A stretch of DNA of 34,178 nt from a virus. Lineage: Duplodnaviria; Heunggongvirae; Uroviricota; Caudoviricetes. Where the stretch lies: IMG/VR virus record IMGVR_UViG_2534681772_000018; one strand, 5' to 3'. Under the pieces are notes generated by a model, which made no database searches, had not been told where the DNA came from, and worked only from the letters and a program-made list of their open reading frames with translations. Positions 3,238 through 27,628 of this stretch are shown in pieces. The position numbers and the translations under genes were made by a program. Numbering within the stretch: the stretch's first letter is position 1; each line of letters begins with the position of its first letter.

Positions 3238-3509
3238 GTATTCGTATTGAAATTGGCGAACGTTATGTCGTTACCAGTGACAGCTTTCAGTTTATTCTCC
3301 ACGAGAAAAAGAGAGCGGAAAGCGGTAAAAACGCCGGTCAGGAATGGCTGGCGGTGGTTGGTTATTACCCGAAATTAGGCCAGCTCGTTTCCGGCCTGAT
3401 GCATCACGATATTCTGACCGGAAGCGCAAAATCTTTTGCTGATTTAAACGCGCAGGTTGAGCAACTCAGCAAGCGTTGTTCAGAGGCTTTTGGCTCATAT
3501 GGCCGTTAA
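3234..3509 (+). CDS. Hypothetical early protein (P2 orf83-like)
   Basis: 91-aa ORF with GGAG upstream, overlapping the upstream stop and the start of A. Confidence 0.5.
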   Translation: MSIRIEIGERYVVTSDSFQFILHEKKRAESGKNAGQEWLAVVGYYPKLGQLVSGLMHHDILTGSAKSFADLNAQVEQLSKRCSEAFGSYGR

Positions 3510-5775
3510 AGCCTCCGGGCGTTTTGTCCCTCCGTCAGCATTTACCGCAGGCACCGGTAAGGCGTTTACCGGTGCTTATGCATGGAACGCGCCACGCGAG
3601 GCTGTCGGGCGCGAAAGACCTCTTACACGTGACGAGATGCGTCAGGTGCAAGGTGTTTTATCCACGATTAACCGCCTGCCTTACTTTTTGCGCTCGCTGT
3701 TTACTTCACGCTATGACTACATCCGGCGCAATAAAAGCCCGGTGCACGGGTTTTATTTCCTCACATCCACTTTTCAGCGTCGTTTATGGCCGCGCATTGA
3801 GCGTGTGAATCAGCGCCATGAAATGAACACCGACGCGTCGTTGCTGTTTCTGGCAGAGCGTGACCACTATGCGCGCCTGCCGGGAATGAATGACAAGGAG
3901 CTGAAAAAGTTTGCCGCCCGTATCTCATCGCAGCTTTTCATGATGTATGAGGAACTCTGCGATGCATGGGTTGATGCGCATGGTGAAAAAGAATCGCTGT
4001 TTACGGATGAGGCGCAGGCTCACCTGTATGGTCATGTTGCTGGCGCTGCACGTGCTTTCAATATTTCCCCGCTCTACTGGAAAAAATACCGTAAAGGACA
4101 GATGACCACGAGGCAGGCATATTCTGCCATTGCCCGTCTGTTTAACGATGAGTGGTGGACTCATCAGCTTAAAGGCCAGCGTATGCGCTGGCATGAAGCG
4201 TTACTGATAGCTGTCGGGGAGGTCAATAAAGACCGTTCTCCTTATGCCAGTAAACACGCCATTCGTGATGTGCGTGCGCGCCGCCAGGCAAATCTGGAAT
4301 TTCTTAAATCGTGTGACCTTGAAAACAGGGAAACCGGCGAGCGCATCGACCTTATCAGTAAGGTGATGGGCAGTATTTCTAATCCTGAAATTCGCCGGAT
4401 GGAGCTGATGAACACCATTGCCGGTATTGAGCGTTACGCCGCCGCAGAGGGCGATGTGGGGATGTTTATCACGCTGACCGCACCGTCAAAGTATCACCCG
4501 ACACGTCAGGTCGGAAAAGGCGAAAGTAAAACCGTGCAGCTTAATCACGGCTGGAACGATGAGGCATTTAATCCAAAGGATGCGCAGCGTTATCTCTGCC
4601 GTATCTGGAGCCTGATGCGCACGGCATTCAAGGATAATGATTTACAGGTTTACGGTTTGCGAGTCGTCGAGCCACACCACGACGGAACGCCGCACTGGCA
4701 TATGATGCTTTTTTGTAATCCACGCCAGCGTAACCAGATTATTGAAATCATGCGTCGCTACGCGCTCAAAGAGGATGGCGACGAAAGAGGAGCTGCGCGA
4801 AACCGTTTTCAGGCAAAACACCTTAACCGGGGCGGTGCTGCGGGATATATCGCGAAATACATTTCAAAAAACATCGACGGCTATGCACTGGATGGTCAGC
4901 TCGATAACGATACCGGCAGGCCGCTGAAAGACACTGCCGCGGCTGTTACCGCATGGGCGTCAACGTGGCGCATTCCGCAATTTAAAACGGTTGGCCTGCC
5001 GACAATGGGGGCTTACCGTGAACTACGCAAATTGCCTCGCGGCGTCAGCATTGCTGATGAGTTTGACGAGCGCGTCGAGGCTGCACGCGCCGCCGCAGAC
5101 AGTGGTGATTTTGCGTTGTATATCAGCGCGCAGGGTGGGGCAAATGTCCCGCGCGATTGTCAGACTGTCAGGGTCGCCCGTAGCCCGTCGGATGACGTTA
5201 ACGAGTACGAGGAAGAAGTCGAGAGAGTGGTCGGCATTTACGCGCCGCATCTCGGCGCGCGTCATATTCATATCACCAGAACGACGGACTGGCGCATTGT
5301 GCCGAAAGTTCCGGTCGTTGAGCCTTTGACTTTAAAAAGCGGCATCGCCGCGCCTCGGAGTCCTGTCAATAACTGTGGAAAGCTCACCGGTGGTGATACT
5401 TCGTTACCGGCTCCCACACCTTCTGAGCACGCCGCAGCAGTGCTTAATCTGGTTGATGACGGTGTTATCGAATGGAATGACCCGGAGGTCGTGAGGGCGC
5501 TCAAAAGCGCATTAAAACACGGCCTGAGAAGACCAAACCGTCAGCAAAGAAACGGAAACCCGTTAAAACCACATGAAATTGCACCATCGGCCAGACTGAG
5601 CCGGTCGGAGCGATTGCAAATCACCCGTATCCGCGTTGACCTTGCTCAGAATGGAATCTTGCCCCAGCGATGGGAGCTTGAGGCGCTGGCGCGTGGGGCA
5701 ACCGTAAATTATGACGGGAAAAAATTCACGTATCCGGTTGCTGATGAGTGGTCGGTTTTTTCAATTAAACAATAA
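3499..5775 (+). CDS. A: Rolling-circle replication initiator (P2 gpA-like, HUH endonuclease)
   Basis: About 758-aa ORF from the first ATG at 3499 (track ORF begins at TTG 3457). HUH-type metal-binding motif PHWHMMLF and paired-tyrosine motif GYIAKYISKNIDGY are typical of rolling-circle Rep proteins; position after the early ORFs matches P2 A. Confidence 0.9.
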   Translation: MAVKASGRFVPPSAFTAGTGKAFTGAYAWNAPREAVGRERPLTRDEMRQVQGVLSTINRLPYFLRSLFTSRYDYIRRNKSPVHGFYFLTSTFQRRLWPRIERVNQRHEMNTDASLLFLAERDHYARLPGMNDKELKKFAARISSQLFMMYEELCDAWVDAHGEKESLFTDEAQAHLYGHVAGAARAFNISPLYWKKYRKGQMTTRQAYSAIARLFNDEWWTHQLKGQRMRWHEALLIAVGEVNKDRSPYASKHAIRDVRARRQANLEFLKSCDLENRETGERIDLISKVMGSISNPEIRRMELMNTIAGIERYAAAEGDVGMFITLTAPSKYHPTRQVGKGESKTVQLNHGWNDEAFNPKDAQRYLCRIWSLMRTAFKDNDLQVYGLRVVEPHHDGTPHWHMMLFCNPRQRNQIIEIMRRYALKEDGDERGAARNRFQAKHLNRGGAAGYIAKYISKNIDGYALDGQLDNDTGRPLKDTAAAVTAWASTWRIPQFKTVGLPTMGAYRELRKLPRGVSIADEFDERVEAARAAADSGDFALYISAQGGANVPRDCQTVRVARSPSDDVNEYEEEVERVVGIYAPHLGARHIHITRTTDWRIVPKVPVVEPLTLKSGIAAPRSPVNNCGKLTGGDTSLPAPTPSEHAAAVLNLVDDGVIEWNDPEVVRALKSALKHGLRRPNRQQRNGNPLKPHEIAPSARLSRSERLQITRIRVDLAQNGILPQRWELEALARGATVNYDGKKFTYPVADEWSVFSIKQ
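5350..5369 (+). promoter_or_regulatory. Candidate replication origin / gpA nick site inside the A coding sequence
   Basis: Sequence GCGCCTCGGAGTCCTGTCAA lies within A; from memory the P2 ori nick site is inside gene A with this sequence. Assigned from recollection only. Confidence 0.35.
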
Positions 5776-5976
5776 TGGCTACTGCCGCAGCGTTGTGGGA
5801 ATGCTATAGTGTTTGTAGAATTATCCCATGAAAAACAACTAATTAATCTGTTTTTCATATTGAACTAATTTTTTATGGCCACAGTTGTTAAAAAGTGAGA
5901 ACATAATCTTGTTCAAAACCTGCTTCTATATACGGAGGCTTTCGCTATAATACGCGGTCGGTTTTAGGAGGGGATA

Positions 5977-6921
5977 ATGCCAACAGTAGTTTCACTTTTT
6001 TCTGGATGCGGTGGTTCCGATGCGGGGGTTCTGAGAGCTGGCTTTGATGTGCTTATGGCCAACGATATCTTGCCGTATGCGCGCGATGTTTATATTGCCA
6101 ATCATCCAGAAACTGATTACATTTTAGGCAATATTGCTGATGTAACTACTTTTCCTAAATCTGATTTGCTAGTAGGTTGTTATCCATGTCAGGGATTCAG
6201 CCAGGGTGGTGCGCGTAAGGCCGATCGAAAAATTAATACTCTTTATTTAGAGTTTGCTAGAGCTTTAAACAATATAAAGCCTAAAGCTTTTATAGTAGAA
6301 AACGTGTCTGGTATGGTTAGAAAAAACTTCGAGCATTTGTTATCTGACCAGATCAGGGTTTTTACTGAAGCAGGTTATGCTGTTTCAGCAAAAGTTTTGA
6401 ATGCGGCTGAATATGGAGTAGCGCAGGAAAGAAAAAGAATATTTATCGTAGGAATCCGTAATGATTTCAAAGTTAAGTACGAGTTCCCTCAGCCAACTCA
6501 TGGGCCGGCGACTGGCGTCAACTATGTTACTATTAAAGATGCTATAGGGCATTTACCTGAATGGCCAGAAGGTGAATTTTATGATATGGGGTTCCATTGG
6601 TATTATATGTCTCGCAATCGTCGCCAAGATTGGGATCAAATTTCAAAGACAATAGTTGCTAATGCAAGGCATATGCCGTTGCATCCTATCAGTCCTTCGA
6701 TGGAGAAAGTAAGAACTGATGAATGGAGGTTTGTTGAGGATCGGAGAGCTCGCAGATTCAGTTTTCGAGAGGCAGCACTATTACAAGGGTTTGAGGATCT
6801 AGTGTTTCCCGAAACAAATGCTGCAAGTCTTGGCATGAAATACACGGTGGTTGGTAATGCAGTGCCTCCGCCGCTTTTTGAAGCTGTAACGAAGGCATTG
6901 CCAATAGAATTATGGGATTGA
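5977..6921 (+). CDS. DNA (cytosine-5)-methyltransferase, Dcm/M.HhaI-like
   Basis: 314-aa ORF with the canonical C5-MTase motifs: motif I FSGCGG, motif IV PCQGFS (catalytic Cys), motif VI ENV, motif VIII QERKR, motif X GNAV. AGGAGGGG precedes the ATG; TATAAT at 5946-5951 upstream. Noticeably AT-rich relative to the phage backbone. Confidence 0.9.
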   Translation: MPTVVSLFSGCGGSDAGVLRAGFDVLMANDILPYARDVYIANHPETDYILGNIADVTTFPKSDLLVGCYPCQGFSQGGARKADRKINTLYLEFARALNNIKPKAFIVENVSGMVRKNFEHLLSDQIRVFTEAGYAVSAKVLNAAEYGVAQERKRIFIVGIRNDFKVKYEFPQPTHGPATGVNYVTIKDAIGHLPEWPEGEFYDMGFHWYYMSRNRRQDWDQISKTIVANARHMPLHPISPSMEKVRTDEWRFVEDRRARRFSFREAALLQGFEDLVFPETNAASLGMKYTVVGNAVPPPLFEAVTKALPIELWD

Positions 6922-6928
6922 TAAGCTA

Positions 6929-7924
6929 TTAAGGCTCTGGATTTAATGTATAAAGTTCTTCTTCAAATTCGCGAAACCAATCAGAGGTAGTTATCGCTTC
7001 CCATTGGTTTGCCTTATCAAGTAGATATATGATCCTCAACCTATCTAATAATAATACACCAGCGGTTGCATGTGTGCTTACCCATTCGCCATTTGCTTCC
7101 CGATAGAAAACAGGCGTGAACATTGTTGATGGATGCTGGAAAGCAATTTGGAAATAGGTGGTCAGTTTTAACACGTTAGCCTCTAATGTTTTGCTTGGCC
7201 ACCCTGTTTCTTGTGCACCACATTGACCAAGAATTCCATAGTTGCTAGTTTGACCATCAGGAAATTCCACTGTAGCAATTAGGTCAAACCCAGCATCACC
7301 AGATGTGGGAGCTTTATTTATTTCCCTTGTGTTTAAACTACAAACTCCAAGATCTTTTCCTAAAATTTGTAGAGCATTCCGAAGATTCGTTCCATAATAT
7401 TTTTGCCTATCATCGGAGTTAGCATCAAAAATTCTTACGGTGCCATGTGCAGGTAAGAGAGAAATCATTGCAACTTTACATACTCTGGCAAAGCTCTTTG
7501 CCCAACGTTGTGCTGCTCCTCTAATCGACTTAAAGGATCTAAGTCTAGAGCAACAAAGGAGAAAAACATATATTCTTTGTTGTTGGTTTAGATTTTCTTT
7601 AATAATTATCTCATCACCTGAAATTATAAATGGATATATCTTTCCAAGAGCGCTTTCTCTATATTCGAGTTGTGTCCAAACATCTTCTAGTTGCTCTTCA
7701 AAACGATCATTTCTCTCTGCGTCTCCATCAATTTCTTCTTCAAAATTACATTCTTCATCAATTTCTTCAACACTTGTCATGCCGAATTTTCTTACTGAAT
7801 CTAAATCATTTTTATGCAGAGAGTTACGTCCGATATAATTAATCACCGTGAGTAACTCGGCTAAATCTGCAAACAAATGGGGAGAGTTGGGATGCATAAC
7901 TCCTACTTCAAAAGTCATCATCAC
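6929..7924 (-). CDS. Hypothetical protein (331 aa), second gene of the minus-strand cargo operon; no recognisable domain
   Basis: Long AT-rich ORF whose start overlaps the stop of the upstream ParB-like gene by 17 nt (7908-7924), and whose stop lies 7 nt from the convergent MTase stop. Acidic N-terminal stretch (EEIDEECNFEEEIDGDAERNDRFEE). No Walker, HNH or clear PD-(D/E)xK motif seen by eye. Confidence 0.6.
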   Translation of the reverse strand: MMMTFEVGVMHPNSPHLFADLAELLTVINYIGRNSLHKNDLDSVRKFGMTSVEEIDEECNFEEEIDGDAERNDRFEEQLEDVWTQLEYRESALGKIYPFIISGDEIIIKENLNQQQRIYVFLLCCSRLRSFKSIRGAAQRWAKSFARVCKVAMISLLPAHGTVRIFDANSDDRQKYYGTNLRNALQILGKDLGVCSLNTREINKAPTSGDAGFDLIATVEFPDGQTSNYGILGQCGAQETGWPSKTLEANVLKLTTYFQIAFQHPSTMFTPVFYREANGEWVSTHATAGVLLLDRLRIIYLLDKANQWEAITTSDWFREFEEELYTLNPEP

Positions 7925-9029
7925 CTCTGCTATTTTTCTCTGCTATTTCAGAACCTATAAGCTTAATATGTTTATTGATTCTTCGTGCTACTTCATGAGC
8001 CTGTCTATCATACTCTACTGTGGCAACCATGCCTGCTGCATCTATCAAAGCCGCTTCAACTTGATAAAGTAACTGGAGAAAGTCCTTAGTAATATCAGAT
8101 GTCAATTGGTAGGCCACTGCGAGTGGAGCCCCCATTCGGAATTGCTCCAATGCCTTAGGGCTACTAACAACAGCAGCTAATTCTCTTAAATTACGTGACT
8201 CTCCAACACGAGTTTTTTTATCCTCACCTTTTTTATATAACCACTCAGTTAGCTCTTTTATTTCTTTGTTCTTTAAGCTATTAGAGTTGATAATAGGATG
8301 ACTTGGTATTGTGTCTCCATCGTCTTCGATTGAAACTCCGACAAATTGGCCTAACCGCTCATCAGCAAGTGCTGTTGATAATACTGAAAATTTAATCGTT
8401 TCTTCATCTAGTTTTTCAATACCATAAAAATCATTTTCTTTAATGATTTCATACACCGCTAAAGCGTCTAGGTTACGCTTGATATGATCCCTACGACTGC
8501 CAATAGCTCTGGCAACCTCATAGTAGCGTAGCATCGGATCCTGATTTGCATTGGTATAATCAAAAAGCTGTTTAATATATCGAGCTTTTGATAAGGGCTC
8601 CCATTGTTTGACACCAGTAATATGTCTGAAACCAAGATACGGAAGAATCTCTTCTCTTGTTTGGCGCTCAATGACAGGAACACGATCGACTGTATGTTTT
8701 GCATTTGATGCAATTTCTCGTAGTCGAGCACTTGGATTTTCACATAGTGTCGGATCGCGTAATAATTTAACTGCGGATAGGCGACGGTTTCCTTCAACTA
8801 CAATGTACTTCCCCGGCGCGACACTGTCAGGAATGACAATCAATGGTTCTCCAGGGAAAAAACCATTTTCCGCAATAGCACTCATTAGATCTTCGATAGA
8901 TGTTGAGGTTGCTATGTAGTTAATCATTCCCAATTGGTCACGAGACACGCCTTCAGGAAGTCTTGGGTTTTCTGTGTCAAGTTCCAAATCATCTAGCGGA
9001 ACATAAAGTATTTCTGAATCAGCAATCAT
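7908..9029 (-). CDS. ParB/Srx-like N-terminal-domain protein (ParB-like nuclease/CTPase fold)
   Basis: 373-aa ORF; N-terminal region ...ENPRLPEG...PGEPLIVIPDSVAPGKYIVVEGNRRLSAVKLL parallels the ParB N-terminal domain, including the GxRRxxA arginine patch (compare Spo0J IVAGERRFRAA). GGAGA 6 nt upstream of ATG 9029. No parA partner gene nearby. Confidence 0.75.
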   Translation of the reverse strand: MIADSEILYVPLDDLELDTENPRLPEGVSRDQLGMINYIATSTSIEDLMSAIAENGFFPGEPLIVIPDSVAPGKYIVVEGNRRLSAVKLLRDPTLCENPSARLREIASNAKHTVDRVPVIERQTREEILPYLGFRHITGVKQWEPLSKARYIKQLFDYTNANQDPMLRYYEVARAIGSRRDHIKRNLDALAVYEIIKENDFYGIEKLDEETIKFSVLSTALADERLGQFVGVSIEDDGDTIPSHPIINSNSLKNKEIKELTEWLYKKGEDKKTRVGESRNLRELAAVVSSPKALEQFRMGAPLAVAYQLTSDITKDFLQLLYQVEAALIDAAGMVATVEYDRQAHEVARRINKHIKLIGSEIAEKNSRGDDDF

Positions 9030-9255
9030 CTGGATCTCCGTTGAACATGTCTACGAGAAGGAGCACAAAGTTATTTCATAACATGCAATATACTCATTCT
9101 GTAGCCATAAATGAATTATTCATGATGTAAGATTCGCGTTGATGTGCGTGAATTCGCAAGTAATTTTATAGCAAGGTTTGATTGGGTATCGTTAGCACTG
9201 GCGCGGTTTCAACGTATTCATGCACCTGCATTAAAACCGACCCATGAAGCGGGCG

Positions 9256-9274
9256 GGCGAGGCGGGGAAAGCAC
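9256..9274. other. cos site (19-nt cohesive end sequence of P2-like phages)
   Basis: GGCGAGGCGGGGAAAGCAC matches my recollection of the P2 cohesive end; lies in the expected place between the A-side accessory locus and Q. Confidence 0.6.
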
Positions 9275-9416
9275 TGCGCGCTGGCGGTGGTGCTGATTTT
9301 ATTTTTTCAGCGTCTGAGCGCGTCGTGATGGCGTTTAGATTGTTAGCCGGGGCGTTGGTGTGTCTGCGGGCTGTTTTGTGCGGTGGTGAGCGTGTGAGAG
9401 CGTGATGGCGGGTTGT

Positions 9417-9443: not shown

Positions 9444-10478
9444 TCAGCCGTTGTCAGTGTCCAGTGAGTAGTTTTTAAAGCGGATGACCTCCTGACCGAG
9501 CCAGCCGTTTATCTCGCGGATCCTGTCCTGTAACGGGATAAGTTCATTGCGGACAAAGACCTTTGCCACTTTCTCAATATCACCCAGCGACCCGACGTTC
9601 TCCGGCTTGCCACCCATCAACTGAAAGGGGATGCGGTGCGCGTCCAGCAGGTCAGCGGCGCTGGCTTTTTTGATATTAAAAAAATCGTCCTTCGTCGCCA
9701 CTTCACTGAGGGGGATAATTTTAATGCCGTCGGCTTTCCCCTGTGGGGCATAGAGAAACAGGTTTTTAAAGTTGTTGCGGCCTTTCGACTTGACCATGTT
9801 TTCGCGAAGCATTTCGATATCGTTGCGGTCCTGCACGGCATCGGTGACGTACATGATGTATCCGGCATGTGCGCCGTTTTCGTAATACTTGCGGCGGAAC
9901 AGCGTGGCCGACTCATTCAGCCAGGCAGAGTTAAGGGCGCTGAGATATTCCGGCAGACCGTACAGCTCCTGATTAATATCCGGCTCCAGCAGGTGAAACA
10001 CGGAGCCGGGCGCGAAAGGTGTCGGCTCGTTGAAAGACGGCACCCACCAGTAAACATCCTCCTCCACGCCACGACGGGTATATTTGGCCGGTGAGGTTTC
10101 CAGTCTGATGACCTTACCGGTGGTGCTGTAACGCTTTTCCAGAAACGCATTACCGAACACCAGAAAATCCAGCACAAAACGGCTGAAATCCTGCTGGGAA
10201 AGCCACGGGTGCGGGATAAACGTTGAAGCCAGAATATTACGTTTGACGTAAATCGGTGAGCTGTGATGCACGGCAGCACGCAGACTTTTTGCCAGGCCGG
10301 TAAAGCTGACCGGTGGCTCATACCATCTGCCGTTACTGATGCACTCGACGTAATCCAGAATGTCACGCCGGTCGAGTACCGGTACCGGCTCACCAAAGGT
10401 GAATGCCTCCATTTTCGGGGCGCTGGCGGTCATTGTTTTTGCCGCAGGTTGCGGTGTTTTCCCTTTTTTCTTGCTCAT
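9444..10478 (-). CDS. Q: Portal protein (P2 gpQ)
   Basis: 344-aa ORF, same length as P2 Q, divergent from the O-N-M capsid operon and immediately downstream of P on the minus strand. Confidence 0.9.
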   Translation of the reverse strand: MSKKKGKTPQPAAKTMTASAPKMEAFTFGEPVPVLDRRDILDYVECISNGRWYEPPVSFTGLAKSLRAAVHHSSPIYVKRNILASTFIPHPWLSQQDFSRFVLDFLVFGNAFLEKRYSTTGKVIRLETSPAKYTRRGVEEDVYWWVPSFNEPTPFAPGSVFHLLEPDINQELYGLPEYLSALNSAWLNESATLFRRKYYENGAHAGYIMYVTDAVQDRNDIEMLRENMVKSKGRNNFKNLFLYAPQGKADGIKIIPLSEVATKDDFFNIKKASAADLLDAHRIPFQLMGGKPENVGSLGDIEKVAKVFVRNELIPLQDRIREINGWLGQEVIRFKNYSLDTDNG

Positions 10479-21116: not shown

Positions 21117-22309
21117 ATGAGCACAAAATTCAGAACCGTTATCACCACTGCCGGTGCAGCAAAGCTGGCAGCGGCAACCGCGCCGGGAGGGCGGAAGGTC
21201 AACATTACCACGATGGCCGTCGGGGATGGCGGTGGTAAATTGCCTGTCCCGGATGCCGGACAGACCGGGCTTATCCACGAAGTCTGGCGACATGCGCTGA
21301 ACAAAATCAGCCAGGACAAACGAAACAGTAATTATATTATCGCAGAGCTGGTTATTCCGCCGGAGGTGGGCGGTTTCTGGATGCGTGAGCTTGGCCTGTA
21401 CGATGATGCGGGAACGTTAATTGCCGTGGCGAACATGGCCGAAAGTTATAAGCCAGCTCTTGCCGAAGGCTCAGGGCGTTCGCAGACCTGCCGCATGGTC
21501 ATCATCGTCAGCAGTGTGGCCTCAGTGGAGCTGACCATTGACACCACAACGGTGATGGCGACGCAGGATTACGTTGATGACAAAATTGCAGAGCACGAAC
21601 AGTCACGACGTCACCCGGACGCCTCGCTGACCGCAAAAGGTTTTACTCAGTTAAGCAGTGCGACCAACAGCATGTCTGAAATGCTTGCCGCAACGCCAAA
21701 AGCCGTTAAGACGGTAATGGATGAAACGAACAAGAAAGCGCCATTAAACAGCCCTGTACTGACCGGAACGCCAACGACGCCAACTGCGCGACAGGGAACG
21801 AATAATACTCAGATCGCAAACACGGCTTTCGTTATGGCCGCGATTGCCGCCCTTGTAGACTCGTCGCCTGACGCACTGAATACGCTGAACGAGCTGGCGG
21901 CGGCGCTGGGCAATGACCCGAATTTTGCTACCACCATGACTAATGCGCTTGCGGGTAAGCAACCGAAAGATGCTACCCTGACGGCGCTGGCGGGGCTTGC
22001 TACTGCGGCAGACAGGTTTCCGTATTTTACGGGGAATGATGTTGCCAGCCTGGCAACCCTGACAAAAGTCGGGCGGGATATTCTGGCTAAATCGACCGTT
22101 GCCGCCGTTATCGAATATCTCGGTTTACAGGAAACGGTAAACCGAGCCGGGAACGCCGTGCAAAAAAATGGCGATACCTTGTCCGGTGGACTTACTTTTG
22201 AAAACGACTCAATCCTTGCCTGGATTCGAAATACTGACTGGGCGAAGATTGGATTTAAAAATGATGCCGATGGTGACACTGATTCATTCATGTGGTTTGA
22301 AACGGGGGA
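21117..22309 (+). pseudogene. H: Tail fibre protein H, 5' fragment, interrupted by IS2
   Basis: ORF begins at 21117 after I and reads ...FMWFETGD up to the IS2 boundary at 22310. The track ORF 21117..22481 continues into IS2 sequence before a stop. Confidence 0.85.
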
Positions 22310-22320
22310 TGGATTTGCCC

Positions 22321-23226
22321 CTATATTTCCAGACACCTGTTATCACTTAACCCATTACTGGCCTGCTGCCGCAGATATTCCCGTGGCGAGCGATAACCCA
22401 GTGCACTATGCGGATGCCATTCGTTATAATGCTCGAACGCCTCTGCAAGGTTCTTTGCTGCCGTTAACCCGTCTGGTTTAGGCATGATACTGATGTAGTC
22501 ACGCTTTATCGTTTTCACGAAGCTCTCTGCTATGCCGTTACTCTCCGGACTCCGCACCGCCGTGTTCTTCGGTTCAAGCCCCAACATCCGGGCAAACTGC
22601 CGTGTTTCATTAGCCCGGTAGCATGAACCATTATCCGTCAGCCACTCTACTGGAGACGCCGGAAGCTCGTTGCCGAAGCGGCGTTCCACCGCTCCCAGCA
22701 TTACGTCCTGTACTGTTTCACTGTCGAAGCCGCCCGTAGTGACTGCCCAGTGCAGTGCCTCACGGTCACAGCAGTCCAGCGCGAACGTGACTCGCAGTTT
22801 TTCTCCGTTATCACAGCGGAACTCGAACCCGTCAGAGCACCATCGTTGATTGCTTTCTTTCACGGCCACTTTGCCAGTATGTGCCCGTTTCGATGGCGGT
22901 ACAGCGGTTTTTCGCTCAAGCAACAGCGCATTCTGGCGCATGATCCGGTAAACACGTTTGGCATTGATCGCAGGCATACCATCAAGTTCGGCCTGTCTGC
23001 GAAGCAGCGCCCATACCCGACGATAACCATACGTGGGCAGCTCTCCGATAACATGGTGTATACGGAGAAGCACATCCGTATCATCTGAGTGACGGCTGCG
23101 GCGACCATCTTTCCAGTCATCGGTTCGTCTGAGAATTACGTGCAACTGCGCACGCGACACCCGGAGACAACGGCTGACTAAGCTTACTCCCCATCCCCGG
23201 GCAATAAGGGCGCGTGCGCTATCCAC
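22321..23226 (-). CDS. insD: IS2 transposase OrfB (InsD, DDE catalytic domain); normally expressed as an OrfAB fusion by -1 frameshift
   Basis: 301-aa [33 protein letters not shown]... recognised as IS2 InsD; overlaps the end of orfA in the -1 frame. Confidence 0.9.
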
Positions 23227-23549
23227 TTTTTTGCACGCCCGTATTCAACGGCTTCTTTAAGGAGTTCATTTTCCATCGTTTTTTTGCCGAGCAGGCGCTG
23301 GAGTTCTTTAATCTGCTTCATGGCAGCAGCAAGTTCAGAGGCAGGAACGACCTGCTCTCCTGCGGCCACAGCAGTAAGACTTCCCTCCTGGTATTGCTTG
23401 CGCCAGAGAAATAACTGGCTGGCTGCCACACCGTGTTGCCGGGCAACAAGGGAGACCGTCATTCCCGGTTCAAAACTCTGCTGAACAATAGCGATCTTTT
23501 CCTGTGTAGTACGCCGTCTGCGTTTCTCCGGTCCTAAGACATCAATCAT
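23184..23549 (-). CDS. insC: IS2 transposase OrfA (InsC, HTH DNA-binding)
   Basis: 121-aa ORF from ATG 23549 ([29 protein letters not shown]...) recognised as IS2 InsC. Confidence 0.9.
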
Positions 23550-23640
23550 CTGCTCTCCAATGACTAGTCTAAAAACTAGTATTAAGACTATCACTTATTT
23601 AAGTGATATTGGTTGTCTGGAGATTCAGGGGGCCAGTCTA

Positions 23641-24474
23641 GGGGATAACGGCAATGAATATTTCAAATGGAGAAGCCGCCAGAGTACTACAACAAAAGAC
23701 CTGATGAATCTTAAATGGGATGCTTTGTATGTTCTTGTCAATGCCATTGTAAATGGCGAAGTCATATCAAAATCAGCAAACGGCCTACGTATTGCTTATG
23801 GTAATTACGGATTCTTTATTCGTAATGATGGTTCAAATACATACTTCATGTTGACAAACTCCGGTGACAACATGGGGACTTATAACGGATTAAGGCCATT
23901 ATGGATTAATAACGCTACTGGCGCTGTTTCGATGGGGCGTGGCCTTAATGTTTCAGGGGAGACGCTTTCAGACCGTTTTGCTATTAACAGCAGTAATGGT
24001 ATGTGGATTCAGATGCGCGATAACAACGCTATCTTTGGGAAAAATATAGTTAACACTGATAGCGCTCAGGCGTTGCTTCGCCAGAATCACGCTGACCGCA
24101 AGTTCATGATAGGTGGACTGGGGAACAAGCAATTTGGCATCTACATGATTAATAACTCAAGGACAGCCAATGGCACCGATGGTCAGGCGTACATGGATAA
24201 TAACGGTAACTGGCTTTGTGGCTCGCAAGTTATTCCCGGCAACTATGGCAATTTTGATTCCAGATATGTGAAAGATGTTCGACTTGGTTCACAGCAATAT
24301 TATGGAGTTAACAACTGGCAAACATGGAATTTCCAGTGCCCGTCAGGTCATGTATTGTCTGGTATTAATGTTCAGGATACAGGGTCCAACTCTGCCGATA
24401 ATATAGCGGGCGTTTATTACAGACCCGTTCAAAAGTATATAAATGGCACCTGGTATAATGTAGCGAGCGTTTAA
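23641..24474 (+). pseudogene. H: Tail fibre protein H, 3' fragment (C-terminal receptor-binding region)
   Basis: Reading frame continues ...DNGNEYFKWRSRQ... to a TAA at 24472-24474. Removing IS2 plus one copy of the 5-bp duplication (1336 bp) joins it in-frame to the 5' fragment, giving an uninterrupted H ORF of about 673 codons. The track ORF 23560..24474 begins inside IS2. Confidence 0.85.
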
Positions 24475-24475
24475 T

Positions 24476-25003
24476 ATGATGCACTTAAAGAACATAAAAG
24501 CGGGTAACGCTAAAACACTGGAACAGTATGAGTTAACAAAGAAACACGGAGTTATCTGGCTTTACTCTGAGGACGGAAAAAACTGGTATGAGGAAGTGAA
24601 GAACTTTCAGCCAGACACAATAAAGATTGTTTACGATGAAAATAATATTATTGTCGCTATCACCAGAGATGCTTCAACGCTTAATCCTGAAGGTTTTAGC
24701 GTTGTTGAGGTTCCTGATATTACCTCCAACCGACGTGCTGACGACTCAGGTAAATGGATGTTTAAGGATGGTGCTGTGGTTAAACGGATTTATACGGCAG
24801 ATGAACAGCAACAACAGGCAGAATCACAAAAGGCAGCGTTACTTTCCGAAGCGGAAAGCGTTATTCAGCCACTGGAACGCGCTGTCAGGCTGAATATGGC
24901 GACGGATGAGGAACGTGCACGACTGGAGTCATGGGAACGCTACAGCGTTCTGGTCAGCCGTGTGGATCCTGCAAATCCTGAATGGCCGGAAATGCCGCAA
25001 TAA
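24476..25003 (+). CDS. G: Tail fibre assembly chaperone (P2 gpG)
   Basis: 175-aa ORF, same length as P2 G, immediately downstream of H. Confidence 0.85.
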
Positions 25004-25218
25004 GTTGTATGAGCTCTAGTGTGGGCTTACATATCTATGGCACAGAGTAAAGCCTAATCTGACAGTCCACTCTGTGCCAGAGGTGGGCATTGCTGATGTC
25101 ATAAAATATTATGCCAGCAGCCGTCTTAGGGGAGTGTTTACATTTCAATGATCGGGTATGATCTCGGCATGTTAATGGTTTATTACTAAATGCTTGCGCC
25201 TATCTTTATGGAGGAGTA

Positions 25219-26118
25219 ATGAGTGGTATTCGTATAACTCAGGCTATTGATAACAATCAGATTTTAGTCAATGTAAATACTTTTAATTATAGTGTTAATC
25301 CCTATCCACTCAAATGTCCTGACCCAAATTGCTCTGCTCATTTGGTGTATGTCAAAAGCCATATTCGTCGGAGTTTTAATAAAACCTTGCATATCCCCGC
25401 CTTCTTTAGACTGGAAAAAAATTTCACGCATGACAAATTATGTCAGTATGGAACTTCAGGATTGAATACAATTTATGCAAGTGATTCCAGTCATGATATC
25501 AGCCGTGCGCTTGCCACAGGTAATAATATATTCCGTATACATATACTCGATGAAGATGATATCTCTAAATTAAGCAGAAAAGCTGCAGCTATGCAGGCAA
25601 ATCCACCTTCTGATACTACAGACCGCGTTTATGTCAAGAGAGGTCGGAAAGCCCCCTATGTGAAGAACATGGATAGCTTACGGGAGATCTATGAATATGG
25701 AAAAGCTCACCCCAACAAGAGAAACAGCATAAAAATTGTTACTGGAACAAGTACTGTAACGTGGTCTGATTTTTTCTATGAAACAACGCAGTTAGAACGA
25801 TTGTCAACTTACCTCCAGAAAGTAAAAATAGCTCAGGTTGCTGTAATTATGAAAGTGCATGTGGCGAGAATCCCTATGGCGAAATTTAATTATCGACACT
25901 TCATTGAAGGTTCGCCAATGAGGATAAAAGGGGGCTTTAATATATATCCTACGATTCAATTAGGAAATGTTACTCCAAAATTATTTCCGTTGAGTAGCAT
26001 TGTCATGGTACTCGGTAAATTTACTATTCCAACAAATAGAAAAATGATAATGGATCCAACATTTGAGCGTGAAGTCAGAACCATAGTTTCTAGTGAAGAG
26101 CAAGTGCTAATTCTTTGA
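25219..26118 (+). CDS. Hypothetical protein (299 aa) at the P2 Z/fun accessory locus; candidate defence/exclusion gene
   Basis: AT-rich ORF between G and FI, the position of Z/fun in P2. GGAGGAG precedes the ATG. N-terminal Cys/His cluster (KCPDPNCSAHL...H...C). No similarity to structural genes that I can recognise. Confidence 0.6.
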   Translation: MSGIRITQAIDNNQILVNVNTFNYSVNPYPLKCPDPNCSAHLVYVKSHIRRSFNKTLHIPAFFRLEKNFTHDKLCQYGTSGLNTIYASDSSHDISRALATGNNIFRIHILDEDDISKLSRKAAAMQANPPSDTTDRVYVKRGRKAPYVKNMDSLREIYEYGKAHPNKRNSIKIVTGTSTVTWSDFFYETTQLERLSTYLQKVKIAQVAVIMKVHVARIPMAKFNYRHFIEGSPMRIKGGFNIYPTIQLGNVTPKLFPLSSIVMVLGKFTIPTNRKMIMDPTFEREVRTIVSSEEQVLIL

Positions 26119-26312
26119 AATCAAGAGGATTTGGCTCGGATGATTATGTGCGGCTTATAACCATAACGTAATGAGCGGATTTTTCTACTGCTTTTTATCA
26201 TTTTGGTTAACTAAAACTAATCTCTGCTCCTCGCTCAAAGCAGACTGTCAGATTTGATAGCGTTTTGGCTATGTAAATTGTCAGTCGGAAAATGAGTGAG
26301 TACAAATCAGGA

Positions 26313-26342
26313 CAGGCGGGCGAATTGCCTGCCTTTTCTTTA
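26313..26342 (+). terminator. Rho-independent terminator downstream of the Z/fun-locus cargo gene
   Basis: AGGCGGGC-GAATT-GCCTGCCT hairpin (one G-U pair) followed by TTTTCTTTAT. Confidence 0.55.
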
Positions 26343-26437
26343 TCTGTTGTTTCATCCACTGACCAGCCAGGTCAAATAGCGTCTCATGCTCTGCACAACA
26401 GAAAATAGTTGCACCCATTAACCACGGAGTTAAACGG

Positions 26438-27628
26438 ATGAGCGACTATCATCATGGCGTGCAGGTGCTGGAGATTAACGACGGCACCCGCGTCATTTCC
26501 ACTGTATCCACCGCCATTGTCGGCATGGTCTGCACGGCCAGCGATGCGGATGCGGAAACCTTCCCCCTCAATAAACCGGTGCTGATTACCAATGTGCAGA
26601 GCGCAATTGCAAAGGCTGGTAAAAAAGGCACGCTGGCGGCATCGTTGCAGGCCATCGCTGACCAGTCAAAACCGGTCACCGTTGTTGTGCGTGTGGAAGA
26701 CGGCACCGGCGACGACGAGGAAACGAAACTCGCGCAGACCGTATCCAATATCATCGGCACCACCGACGAAAACGGTCAGTACACCGGACTGAAAGCCCTG
26801 CTGGCGGCGGAGTCGGTAACCGGTGTTAAACCGCGTATTCTCGGCGTGCCGGGGCTGGATACCAAAGAGGTGGCTGTTGCACTGGCATCAGTCTGTCAGA
26901 AGCTGCGCGCTTTCGGGTATATCAGCGCATGGGGCTGTAAAACCATTTCCGAGGTGAAAGCCTACCGCCAGAATTTCAGCCAGCGTGAGCTGATGGTCAT
27001 CTGGCCAGATTTCCTCGCATGGGATACGGTCACCAGTACCACCGCCACCGCGTATGCCACCGCCCGTGCGCTGGGTCTGCGCGCTAAAATCGACCAGGAG
27101 CAGGGCTGGCATAAAACGCTGTCCAATGTCGGGGTAAACGGTGTTACCGGCATCAGTGCCTCTGTATTCTGGGATTTGCAGGAGTCCGGCACCGATGCTG
27201 ACCTGTTGAACGAGTCAGGTGTCACAACGCTGATTCGCCGTGACGGTTTCCGCTTCTGGGGTAACCGTACCTGCTCTGATGACCCGCTGTTCCTCTTTGA
27301 AAACTACACCCGCACCGCGCAGGTGCTGGCCGACACGATGGCTGAGGCGCACATGTGGGCGGTGGACAAGCCCATCACCGCAACGCTGATTCGCGACATC
27401 GTTGACGGCATCAATGCCAAATTCCGTGAGCTGAAAACAAACGGCTATATCGTGGATGCGACCTGCTGGTTCAGCGAAGAATCCAACGATGCGGAAACCC
27501 TCAAGGCCGGAAAACTGTATATCGACTACGACTATACACCGGTGCCTCCTCTTGAAAACCTGACCCTGCGCCAGCGTATTACCGATAAATACCTGGCAAA
27601 TCTGGTCACCTCGGTTAACAGCAATTAA
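26438..27628 (+). CDS. FI: Contractile tail sheath protein (P2 gpFI)
   Basis: 396-aa ORF, same length as P2 FI; GGAG upstream; followed by the tube gene. Confidence 0.9.
   Translation: MSDYHHGVQVLEINDGTRVISTVSTAIVGMVCTASDADAETFPLNKPVLITNVQSAIAKAGKKGTLAASLQAIADQSKPVTVVVRVEDGTGDDEETKLAQTVSNIIGTTDENGQYTGLKALLAAESVTGVKPRILGVPGLDTKEVAVALASVCQKLRAFGYISAWGCKTISEVKAYRQNFSQRELMVIWPDFLAWDTVTSTTATAYATARALGLRAKIDQEQGWHKTLSNVGVNGVTGISASVFWDLQESGTDADLLNESGVTTLIRRDGFRFWGNRTCSDDPLFLFENYTRTAQVLADTMAEAHMWAVDKPITATLIRDIVDGINAKFRELKTNGYIVDATCWFSEESNDAETLKAGKLYIDYDYTPVPPLENLTLRQRITDKYLANLVTSVNSN

Follow-up and report, generated by a model that had tools for sequence, protein, structure and literature searches.

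The P2-like prophage in the stretch of viral DNA analysed here (IMG/VR record IMGVR_UViG_2534681772_000018, 34,178 nucleotides, below referred to as the window) carries a low-GC island of three genes between the replication gene A and the cohesive-end site cos. The island encodes a C5-cytosine DNA methyltransferase (MTase), a protein with a ParB/Srx-type N-terminal domain (the ParB-like protein) and an orphan protein for which a winged helix and a restriction endonuclease (REase)-like fold are predicted. Our preferred interpretation, to which we give slightly less than an even chance, is that the island constitutes a self-contained, horizontally mobile defence cassette of three genes that resembles restriction-modification (R-M) systems. 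What makes us think of defence is the location of the island at the A/Q hotspot of P2, the match of the ParB-like protein to models of the PD-Lambda-5_A component, the linkage of the three genes, the co-evolution of the ParB-like protein with the orphan (the pair), and signs of an R-M-style regulation of the methylase.

Three genes that are inherited together at the P2 A/Q hotspot

Both the listing of open reading frames (ORFs) and the direct reading of the sequence give three genes in the island, whose GC content is 0.35-0.43 over positions 5750-9250, as compared to 0.51-0.60 on either side. The locus is the A/Q (tin/old) hotspot of P2, home of old and tin and of many validated defence systems, and the flanking gene A, gene Q and cos confirm this placement, which a first-pass annotation of the sequence had already proposed (coordinates in Table 1). 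The right border is a cohesive-end sequence that corresponds to cos of P2, and the cos-side flank is common to many P2-like phages and prophages. The gene layout given in that annotation, with a 314-residue C5-MTase that has the canonical motifs and that converges over a gap of 7 bp on a two-gene minus-strand operon of low GC content, was likewise found as described by ORF, Pfam and GC analyses. As the spacer between the convergent stop codons has only 7 bp, there is no space for a terminator, and the convergent genes abut or overlap in the same way throughout the family, with gaps of -4 to +16 nt among related loci. The MTase is transcribed separately from the pair. In the phages 12474III and Wphi, a DUF3850/ASCH (PUA-like) gene that corresponds to P2 orf91 lies between gene A and the methylase gene; the window island does not contain orf91, and the methylase gene therefore follows directly after gene A. 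The island is 100% identical to that of E. coli TW10590 and 99.9% identical to that of ATCC 8739, where it resides in a P2-like prophage beside cpxP. A scan of the island with Rfam gave zero matches.

How strictly are the three genes linked? By megablast, the complete island (100% coverage, at least 97% identity, three genes annotated) was found in 48 of 5,426 complete E. coli genomes, and none of these genomes had a partial island, as the other 107 matches comprised about 40-65 bp of the cos-proximal flank. In a pattern scan that considered one genome per species, we found 21 loci with relatives of the orphan. Wherever the sequence at these loci is long enough, the gene of the ParB-like protein is located directly upstream of the orphan gene, which it usually overlaps, and in 12 of the 21 loci a C5-MTase that is 60-77% identical to that of the window adjoins the pair, either convergently (10 loci) or upstream and co-directionally (2 loci). 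Also all five informative remote loci, in which the orphan is about 30% identical, keep the ParB-like gene upstream and an adjacent C5 DNA_methylase gene. The trio is held in three different gene orders, including co-directional single operons with overlapping genes (loci L021, L022 and L028), and its hosts are Gamma- and Betaproteobacteria and Acidobacteriota as well as the phages HQ103, 12474II-V, Wphi and D14A. The isolated phage HQ103 carries the island at 97% identity, and its three proteins are about 97-99% identical to those of the window. For the ParB-like protein, the orphan and the MTase, in this order, identities to the window are 61, 58 and 76% in the phages 12474II-V and 34, 26 and 76% in Wphi (orf98, orf96 and mth), whereas the trio of Pseudomonas phage D14A was detected by the hidden Markov models (HMMs) of both families, ParB-like and orphan. 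The cassette is located at the A/Q locus in Wphi, 12474III and HQ103, but elsewhere in the P2-family genome of D14A. In Yersinia phage L-413C, the hotspot has neither an orphan nor a methylase gene but a truncated ParB-like gene that overlaps orf91 (331 amino acids, with 62% identity at residues 9-303), which indicates a decayed cassette.

The checked co-occurrence, complete in the 48 genomes and recurrent in other P2-like phages, bears on the view that two independent functions merely share the locus, namely a solitary methylase that serves anti-restriction of P2 DNA or acts on host expression, and a methylation-independent two-gene defence or exclusion system. The first-pass annotation had considered an orphan MTase beside an independent system to be equally likely. 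It is true that P2 hotspots often hold more than one system, that MTase and pair are transcribed separately, that the MTase cassette has moved between divergent pairs, and that pairs without an adjacent MTase exist in Methylococcales. However, the all-or-none occurrence in E. coli, the persistence of the trio in three gene orders and unrelated contexts, even where the orphans share just about 30% of their residues, and the co-directional overlapping operons are difficult to reconcile with independence, and the related system PD-lambda-5 is a validated two-gene unit of a methylase and a ParB-domain protein. We therefore regard independent functions as improbable.

The rates of divergence indicate which of the genes belong most closely together. 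The pairwise divergences of ParB-like protein and orphan are highly correlated (r=0.90), whereas those of the MTase correlate with either of them at r=0.44-0.50 only. Together with the shared linkage, this makes the pair one co-evolving unit, and the two proteins probably interact physically. The MTase is the most conserved component, with a mean pairwise identity of 60% as compared to 44% and 36% for the two pair proteins, and the MTases of Wphi and 12474III are even 98% identical while their pairs are 36% and 28% identical. As far as can be judged from these comparisons of sequences, the pair has the methylase as its constant companion, but one that can be exchanged, and the faster evolution of the pair is as expected for effectors in an arms race. 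Some relatives have further genes that are typical for R-M loci: an Xre-type helix-turn-helix (HTH) gene occupies the position of an R-M controller in L027 and L035/36, and genes for the repair of deaminated 5-methylcytosine (5mC) accompany the MTase in L028 (Vsr) and L037 (HhH-GPD).

The ParB-like protein and its orphan partner

With the ParB-like protein, 25 PD-Lambda-5_A models of PADLOC match, the best of them with E=1.6e-28, covering only residues 9-192 of the protein and positions 7-196 of the 440 positions of the profile. These matches and the REase-like fold of the partner bear out the R-M-like, defence-related appearance that had been ascribed to the island. The PADLOC candidate model PDC-M38A matches as well (E=2.2e-21, residues 43-339). 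General ParB profiles remain below their thresholds, with 32.8 bits versus a cut-off of 58.45 for TIGR00180 parB_part (E=5e-8) and 13.3 bits versus a cut-off of 26.3 for Pfam ParB_N. The AlphaFold2 model (predicted local distance difference test, pLDDT, of 89) was matched by Foldseek to C-terminally truncated ParB, KorB and Noc structures that comprise the CTPase N-terminal domain and the HTH, with E-values of 5.5e-7 to 1e-4 and alignments spanning 211-269 columns, while the helical domain of residues ~250-373 has no structural match. The sequence E79-G80-N81-R82-R83 is invariant in 35 homologues, and its GNRR part is the counterpart of the phosphate-binding motif GERRxRA of ParB. In the canonical GERR motif, it is the Glu that catalyses the hydrolysis of CTP. 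On the basis of the model, the protein looks like a CTPase-type DNA clamp and not like a nuclease. A HEPN nuclease was considered for the C-terminal region, as there is an Rx4H sequence (RRINKH), but the His is replaced by Asn in most homologues, and there is no match to a HEPN profile.

The orphan had been described as a 331-residue protein without a recognizable domain. This holds for the profile searches, as there is no match in Pfam, NCBIfam or PADLOC, and phrog_3984, to which the protein belongs, is of unknown function; but a winged helix and a REase-like fold become apparent in the predicted structure, and the length is likely 329 residues. The ORF gives 331 residues mechanically from GTG 7924, and ATG 7918, the start in RefSeq that also matches the N-termini of homologues, is the likelier start. 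It overlaps the end of the ParB-like gene by 11 nt, and this overlap of start and stop, which suggests translational coupling, is conserved. In Foldseek searches with the AlphaFold2 model (pLDDT 84, predicted template modelling score 0.87), MspJI was the top match with a probability of 0.97, and NgoMIV was also among the nearest. Searches by sequence against solved structures gave nothing useful for either pair protein. Among 139 diverse members of the orphan family, D18, E21, R87, Y95-P-F97, Y117, F143, D208, D212, Q232, W240, K243, R273, W279, D292, R293 and R295 are invariant or near-invariant. D212 and Q232 are at the positions expected for a PD-(D/E)xK or MspJI-type D...QxK site, a Gly is found at the canonical Lys position, and the conserved K243 falls into a low-confidence loop of the model. 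A REase-like fold thus is a reasonable assignment from the model, whereas the nuclease motif is non-canonical and catalysis is putative. In an exhaustive profile search, the orphan family comprised 1,204 cluster representatives. The best 150 of these are all standalone proteins of about 320 residues, with no case of a fusion to ParB or another domain. In the first-pass annotation, the ParB/Srx protein was the putative nuclease; judging from the structural models, the nuclease of the module is likely the orphan.

The fold of the ParB-like protein could also mean that the pair has nothing to do with defence and represents a partition or regulatory module of the prophage, acting by centromere binding or KorB-like repression, or a part of a 5mC-based hypermodification pathway. 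The similarity to ParB, KorB and Noc includes the HTH, a putative partition system occurs at this locus in about a quarter of the P2-like phages, and in phages, proteins with a ParB fold frequently show linkage to methyltransferases and T-dioxygenases. But there is no ParA/StbA-type ATPase as conserved partner, neither in the island nor in the related loci, where ATPases adjoin pairs just twice, in L003 (an AAA protein encoded upstream of HsdS, the Type I specificity subunit) and in L022 (a MoxR-like protein encoded downstream). Moreover, the fold of the partner is REase-like and not that of an ATPase, dioxygenase or transferase, the module elsewhere has Type I R-M, AIPR and HNH genes as its neighbours in chromosomal islands, and the strongest profile matches are those to defence models. 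A non-defence function is therefore very improbable. ParABS partition in particular was rejected, as the CTPase and HTH fold is present but ParA is not, and as the scores are below the curated thresholds.

The methylase and its putative promoter

The MTase matches Pfam DNA_methylase over its full length (E=5e-65) as well as TIGR00675 dcm (E=2.6e-56), and its translation contains the motifs FSGCGG (I), PCQ (IV, with Cys71 as the catalytic residue), ENV (VI), QERKR (VIII, QxRxR) and GNAVPP (X). The closest solved structure is that of M.HaeIII, which methylates GGCC (E=2.8e-48), and the alignment of residues 4-308 includes the target-recognition region. R225, R227 and R243 of M.HaeIII, the guanine-contacting residues, pair with Arg residues of the window MTase, from which we infer a GGCC-type specificity of the window enzyme, with GGCC or TGGCCA as the probable target.

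The region upstream of the methylase gene supports this prediction. It contains a candidate promoter whose -35-like hexamer is TGGCCA, and this hexamer recurs upstream of the MTase gene in 8 of 20 related loci, whereas shuffled sequences had a mean of 0.54 and in 0 of 5,000 shuffles was a count of 8 reached. The lineages with this site include Escherichia and Edwardsiella prophages, Methylophilaceae, Halomonas, Acidovorax and Melaminivora, and a -10-like hexamer (TATAAT, TAAACT, TACACT or GAATAT) usually follows after 17 nt. A methylase target within the -35 region of the methylase's own promoter is the logic of CfrBI-type autoregulation. The conserved site thus supports both the predicted specificity of the MTase and an R-M-style control of the putative promoter. 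TGGCCA was not seen in the upstream regions of the ParB-like gene across the loci, nor was it found upstream of two PD-lambda-5-type phage operons that were examined. In the window, a 32-nt segment of the methylase regulatory region has a second, inverted copy with 72% complementarity ahead of the ParB-like operon (see also 5763-5782), and the ParB-side copy has ATGGCTAC where the methylase-side copy has ATGGCCAC, i.e. GGCT and not GGCC. It is uncertain whether this repeat represents a shared promoter/operator or has arisen by chance; the ParB-side copy is not conserved elsewhere.

Two further observations on TGGCCA were not retained as signals. Across the modules, TGGCCA is enriched within genes (36 sites observed versus 9.2 expected), but these sites fall on conserved W-P and M-A-N peptides, and the codons that create the site are not significantly preferred (CCA in 17 of 40 W-P, background 0.34; GCC in 6 of 15 M-A-N, background 0.21). 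In the P2 backbone, i.e. the 30.6 kb outside of positions 5776-9300, TGGCCA is depleted (1 versus 16.8 expected), which could have been a trace of restriction, but this depletion is non-specific, as CAGCTG (0 versus 13.9) and GGCGCC (0 versus 17.5) are depleted as well. The backbone generally avoids palindromes: at least 12 palindromic hexamers are absent, and GATC occurs 23 times versus 122 times expected.

TGGCCA has been reported as a motif of N6-methyladenine (m6A) in enterobacteria, in Chania with the prediction that an orphan alpha-class (Dam-like) methylase with more than 30 close relatives is responsible, and in Photorhabdus with no gene assigned by the authors (PMC5005818, PMC6092372). 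Neither of these m6A marks is that of the window enzyme. The methylase of PD-lambda-5 is also of the D12 class, and a TGGCCA target that is shared by ParB-methylase systems across chemistries is a lead only.

Relationship to known systems

No named system had been recognized in the island, and this remains so, as the nearest one is PD-lambda-5, whose D12-class B component and C-terminal half of the A component go unmatched. PD-lambda-5 of E. coli ECOR7, annotated as “ParB/HEPN, methyltransferase”, is a validated and broadly protective two-gene unit (Vassallo et al. 2022, PMC9519451). Its A component of about 500 residues has a ParB domain at residues 6-89 and weak HEPN signals (HHpred, 36% DUF4145 and 8% RiboL-PSP), its B component is a MethyltransfD12 protein of the adenine methylase class (HHpred 99.9%), and the system had to be cloned in a host deleted for the mrr-containing region (PMC9519451), which suggests that the methylase is active. 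Both systems combine a prophage-borne methylase with a protein that has a homologous ParB/Srx N-terminal domain. However, the MTase of the window is of the C5 class (PF00145) and not of the D12 class, and PD-lambda-5_A is a single polypeptide of ~430-590 residues (profile lengths in PADLOC), whereas the alignments with the window protein end at about residue 190, where the latter continues with a ParB-type HTH and another C-terminus. In addition, PD-lambda-5 has two genes, whereas three are conserved here, the third encoding the separate REase-like orphan. Marinobacter AS1_27 and Vibrio ValB1MD-2 gp42, which are of the PD-lambda-5 type, match the HMM of the ParB-like family at its positions 8-162 only, and the HMM of the orphan detected no homology to the C-termini or partners of such systems (AS1_27; ValB1MD-2 gp42/gp41). 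Since methylase class, effector and gene number differ, the cassette is not a member of the PD-lambda-5 systems; sequence homology makes it a distant relative.

The cassettes of Wphi, 12474II-V, HQ103 and D14A have the same make-up of three genes and are annotated just as hypothetical proteins and a methylase, and in our literature search we found no functional data for them or for the trio. The combination of genes, which was not recognized in the first-pass annotation, indeed has no name, but it is not new: apart from its presence in Wphi, it is listed as “DNA_methylase + hypothetical + ParBc” at the P2 hotspot, with no test reported (Rousset et al. 2022, Table S5A). The arrangement thus is a previously seen, unnamed and uncharacterized variant of the theme of a ParB-domain protein with a methylase and, in some cases, an effector. 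The same table has a combination of DUF262, DNA_methylase and HEPN at the P2 hotspot, in which a protein of the ParB superfamily and a C5 methylase are joined by a HEPN effector.

In comparison with Type II R-M systems such as HaeIII, the M.HaeIII-like methylase is linked to a protein with a predicted PD-(D/E)xK-like fold in a convergent M/R layout, its catalytic motifs are complete, and methylase and putative restriction genes are inherited together, with the exception of six Methylococcales loci. The probable target in the methylase -35 region, as in CfrBI, and the controller-position HTH, Vsr or glycosylase companions of some relatives add to this similarity. A difference is that there are two putative restriction proteins, one of them with a ParB fold and predicted to bind nucleoside triphosphates (NTPs), as no classical Type II enzyme needs such a protein. 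With the clamps ParB, KorB and Noc, the predicted structure of the ParB-like protein aligns on the CTPase N-terminal domain and the HTH, and they share a GxxRxxA-type motif with an invariant Arg-Arg. Differences to these clamps are the lack of a ParA partner and of an evident parS-type function, the GNRR instead of GERR, the other C-terminal domain, and the coupling to a nuclease-like partner and a methylase.

GmrSD/DUF262 Type IV enzymes, DndB, SspE, DpdB and the ParB, methylase and HEPN combination (MAE_28990) likewise bring together a nuclease, a DNA-modification theme and an NTPase domain of the ParB/Srx type. These systems use the DGQHR/DUF262 branch or HEPN/HNH effectors, whereas here a classical ParB with HTH and a winged-helix/REase-like effector are found. 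In the Pfam and PADLOC profile searches, neither minus-strand protein matched a HEPN profile, as would be expected for a system of the MAE_28990 type, and GmrSD, which has no methylase linked to it, attacks modified DNA. MspJI and AspBHI are the best structural matches to the C-terminal domain of the orphan, and the D...Q-x-K layout is similar to that of D212 and Q232. MspJI cuts methylated DNA and binds 5mC by an SRA-like domain at its N-terminus, whereas the orphan has a winged helix, and a Gly at the Lys position. The winged helix in place of SRA and the linkage to a methylase argue for a polarity that is opposite to that of MspJI. The MTase finally matches DruM2 models of Druantia type II (E=1e-113), but this system was rejected, as the island of three genes contains no DruE helicase, DruF or DruG.

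Proposed mechanism and its alternatives

In the proposed R-M-like cassette, the M.HaeIII-like methylase would mark the DNA of the lysogen, probably at GGCC or TGGCCA, and would probably feed back on its own promoter via the TGGCCA in the -35 region. The translationally coupled ParB-like protein may engage DNA that is not marked, and it may then recruit or license its winged-helix/PD-(D/E)xK-like partner, which would result in damage to the unmarked phage DNA. In a more specific and rather doubtful version of this mechanism, the ParB-like protein would be an NTP-gated clamp that loads on DNA without the 5mC mark at sites of the GGCC/TGGCCA type, closes, spreads in the manner of ParB or KorB, and thereby recruits or activates the partner. 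If this version is true, the cassette would represent a class of R-M systems in which the recognition of non-self is coupled to destruction by a CTP/NTP switch clamp and not by a helicase or translocase motor. The ParB N-terminal domain would then be the common sensor of a “ParB-methylase” superfamily, in which effectors (REase-like or HEPN-like) and methylases (C5 or D12) are interchangeable.

Several points weigh against the proposed cassette. Our literature search found no paper in which this family had been tested. Asn81 takes the place of the catalytic Glu in the ParB-like protein, and NTP hydrolysis, which is predicted from the motif, may thus differ. The recognition helix of the HTH differs between the window protein and Wphi gp98 despite MTases that are 76% identical, which fits poorly with the simple idea that the methylase site is read by the ParB HTH. 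At six loci (L003, L006, L008 and L013-15), all from Methylococcales assemblies, there is no C5-MTase adjacent to the pair (within 3 kb where the sequence allows). All invariant residues are intact in these pairs, and the pair therefore is not obligatorily tied to a neighbouring methylase. At one of these loci, L003 from a Methylococcaceae metagenome-assembled genome, the pair directly follows the genes of an AAA ATPase and a specificity subunit of Type I (HsdS; PADLOC Specificity_I, E=8e-188; weaker mad5/mad8 matches), an arrangement similar to that of auxiliary genes within Type I or MADS-like loci. Finally, in 4 of the 19 trio loci (L005, L028, L012 and L035), an extra nuclease gene lies beside the MTase. 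The nucleases of L005 and L028 are HNH_2 proteins that are 47% identical to each other with a common N-terminal “YWWVNHKQT...GGY” domain, L012 encodes an HNH protein unrelated to these, and L035 a protein with an HSDR_N domain; these extra nucleases could be cognate REases or Type IV enzymes.

What alternative would account for these points? In the main alternative, the pair would not be the cognate restriction enzyme but an auxiliary effector accompanying methylases or R-M systems, and cues of infection or interference with methylation would trigger it, whereupon it kills or arrests the infected cell. In the version at the P2 locus, the classical REase would then have been lost in a “compaction”. 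Such an association of R-M with abortive infection (Abi), “RM+Abi”, was suggested as a model for PD-lambda-5 by Vassallo et al. (PMC9519451), and HEPN families in operons with ParB and a DNA methylase as well as Abi genes inside R-M operons have been described (Anantharaman et al. 2013). The extra nucleases, the HsdS neighbour in L003, the pair-only loci with intact motifs and the different recognition helices all agree with this explanation, as does the loose co-evolution of MTase and pair (r about 0.45-0.5), with divergent pairs beside 98% identical MTases. However, there is no other nuclease in the window or in most loci, and a phage gains nothing from the inhibition of a solitary methylase, so that there would hardly be anything for such a guard to protect. 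Just 4 of the 19 trio loci have an extra nuclease while the trio is constant, and the HTH genes in controller position as well as the promoter site of the methylase suggest that expression of the pair endangers unmethylated host DNA. We thus consider an auxiliary effector unlikely, though clearly worth keeping in mind, and prefer the self-contained R-M-like cassette.

If the cassette is functional, it represents a widespread compact defence family, as the orphan alone has about 1,200 cluster representatives. Profile catalogues would miss this locus, because just the ParB N-terminal domain scores to a named system (PD-lambda-5), whose second component is absent. As the literature search gave no published mechanism for PD-lambda-5, a functional cassette would offer a tractable E. 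coli/P2 model for the role of a ParB-CTPase-fold protein in immunity, and the 98% identical MTases beside 28-36% identical pairs would illustrate the shuffling of methylases and effector modules at hotspots of phages. In practical terms, a prophage-encoded methylase of the predicted GGCC-type 5mC specificity would affect cloning and transformation barriers and the McrBC sensitivity of strains such as ATCC 8739; GGmCC, the product of an M.HaeIII-type methylation, is a substrate of McrBC.

Other features of the prophage

Table 1. Coordinates of the island, its flanks and further features of the window (positions without locus number) and of related loci (positions with locus number)
Feature	Position	Strand	Remarks
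Replication gene A	3457-5775		Left flank
Methylase regulatory region	5776-5976	+	Candidate promoter, from sequence
32-nt inverted repeat, methylase-side copy	5853-5884		
TGGCCA, -35-like hexamer	5876-5881		Followed by 17-nt spacer
GAACAT, -10-like hexamer	5899-5904		
TATAAT, second hexamer	5946-5951		
AGGAGG, ribosome-binding site	5966-5971		
C5-cytosine DNA methyltransferase, M.HaeIII-like	5977-6921	+	314 aa; Pfam DNA_methylase PF00145
Spacer between convergent stop codons	6922-6928		7 bp, TAAGCTA; MTase stop ends at 6921, minus-strand stop begins at 6929
Orphan, effector candidate	6929-7918	-	329 aa; phrog_3984; winged helix and PD-(D/E)xK-like fold, predicted
ParB-like protein	7908-9029	-	373 aa; phrog_3694; ParB/Srx CTPase-fold N-domain, ParB-type HTH, helical C-terminal domain
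Upstream region of ParB-like operon	9030-9255	-	Holds the 32-nt near-copy 9099-9130, TTTATGGCTACAG
P2-type cohesive-end sequence, cos	9256-9274	+	GGCGAGGCGGGGAAAGCAC; right border of cargo locus
Portal gene Q	9444-10478		Right flank
Tail-fibre gene H, N-terminal part	21117-22481		454 aa
IS2-like element	22318-23631	-	ORFs of 136 aa and 301 aa (rve/HTH_21)
Tail-fibre gene H, C-terminal part	23560-24474		304 aa; Gp34_trimer
Second AT-rich cargo position, P2 Z/fun hotspot	23600-26600		Low GC
ORF of 299 aa	25219-26118	+	phrog_7195
Pair with AAA ATPase and HsdS	L003 3388-9008		Methylococcaceae
HNH_2 proteins	L005 8997-9929; L028 1126-2076		
HNH protein	L012 10115-10840		
HSDR_N-domain protein	L035 6308-7429		
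DUF3850/ASCH gene (P2 orf91)	L023 7004-7456; L024 3896-4177		12474III; Wphi
Truncated ParB-like gene	L025 207-1199		Yersinia phage L-413C

Outside of the island, the window contains an IS2-like element with imperfect terminal inverted repeats of 33 nt, which splits the tail-fibre gene H into an N-terminal and a C-terminal part. The prophage thus is probably defective in the production of tail fibres. A second position with AT-rich cargo is the Z/fun hotspot of P2, between tail-fibre assembly and sheath genes. A protein of 299 residues that is encoded there belongs to phrog_7195 (function unknown), has no match in Pfam or PADLOC, and is a candidate for a further accessory or defence gene.

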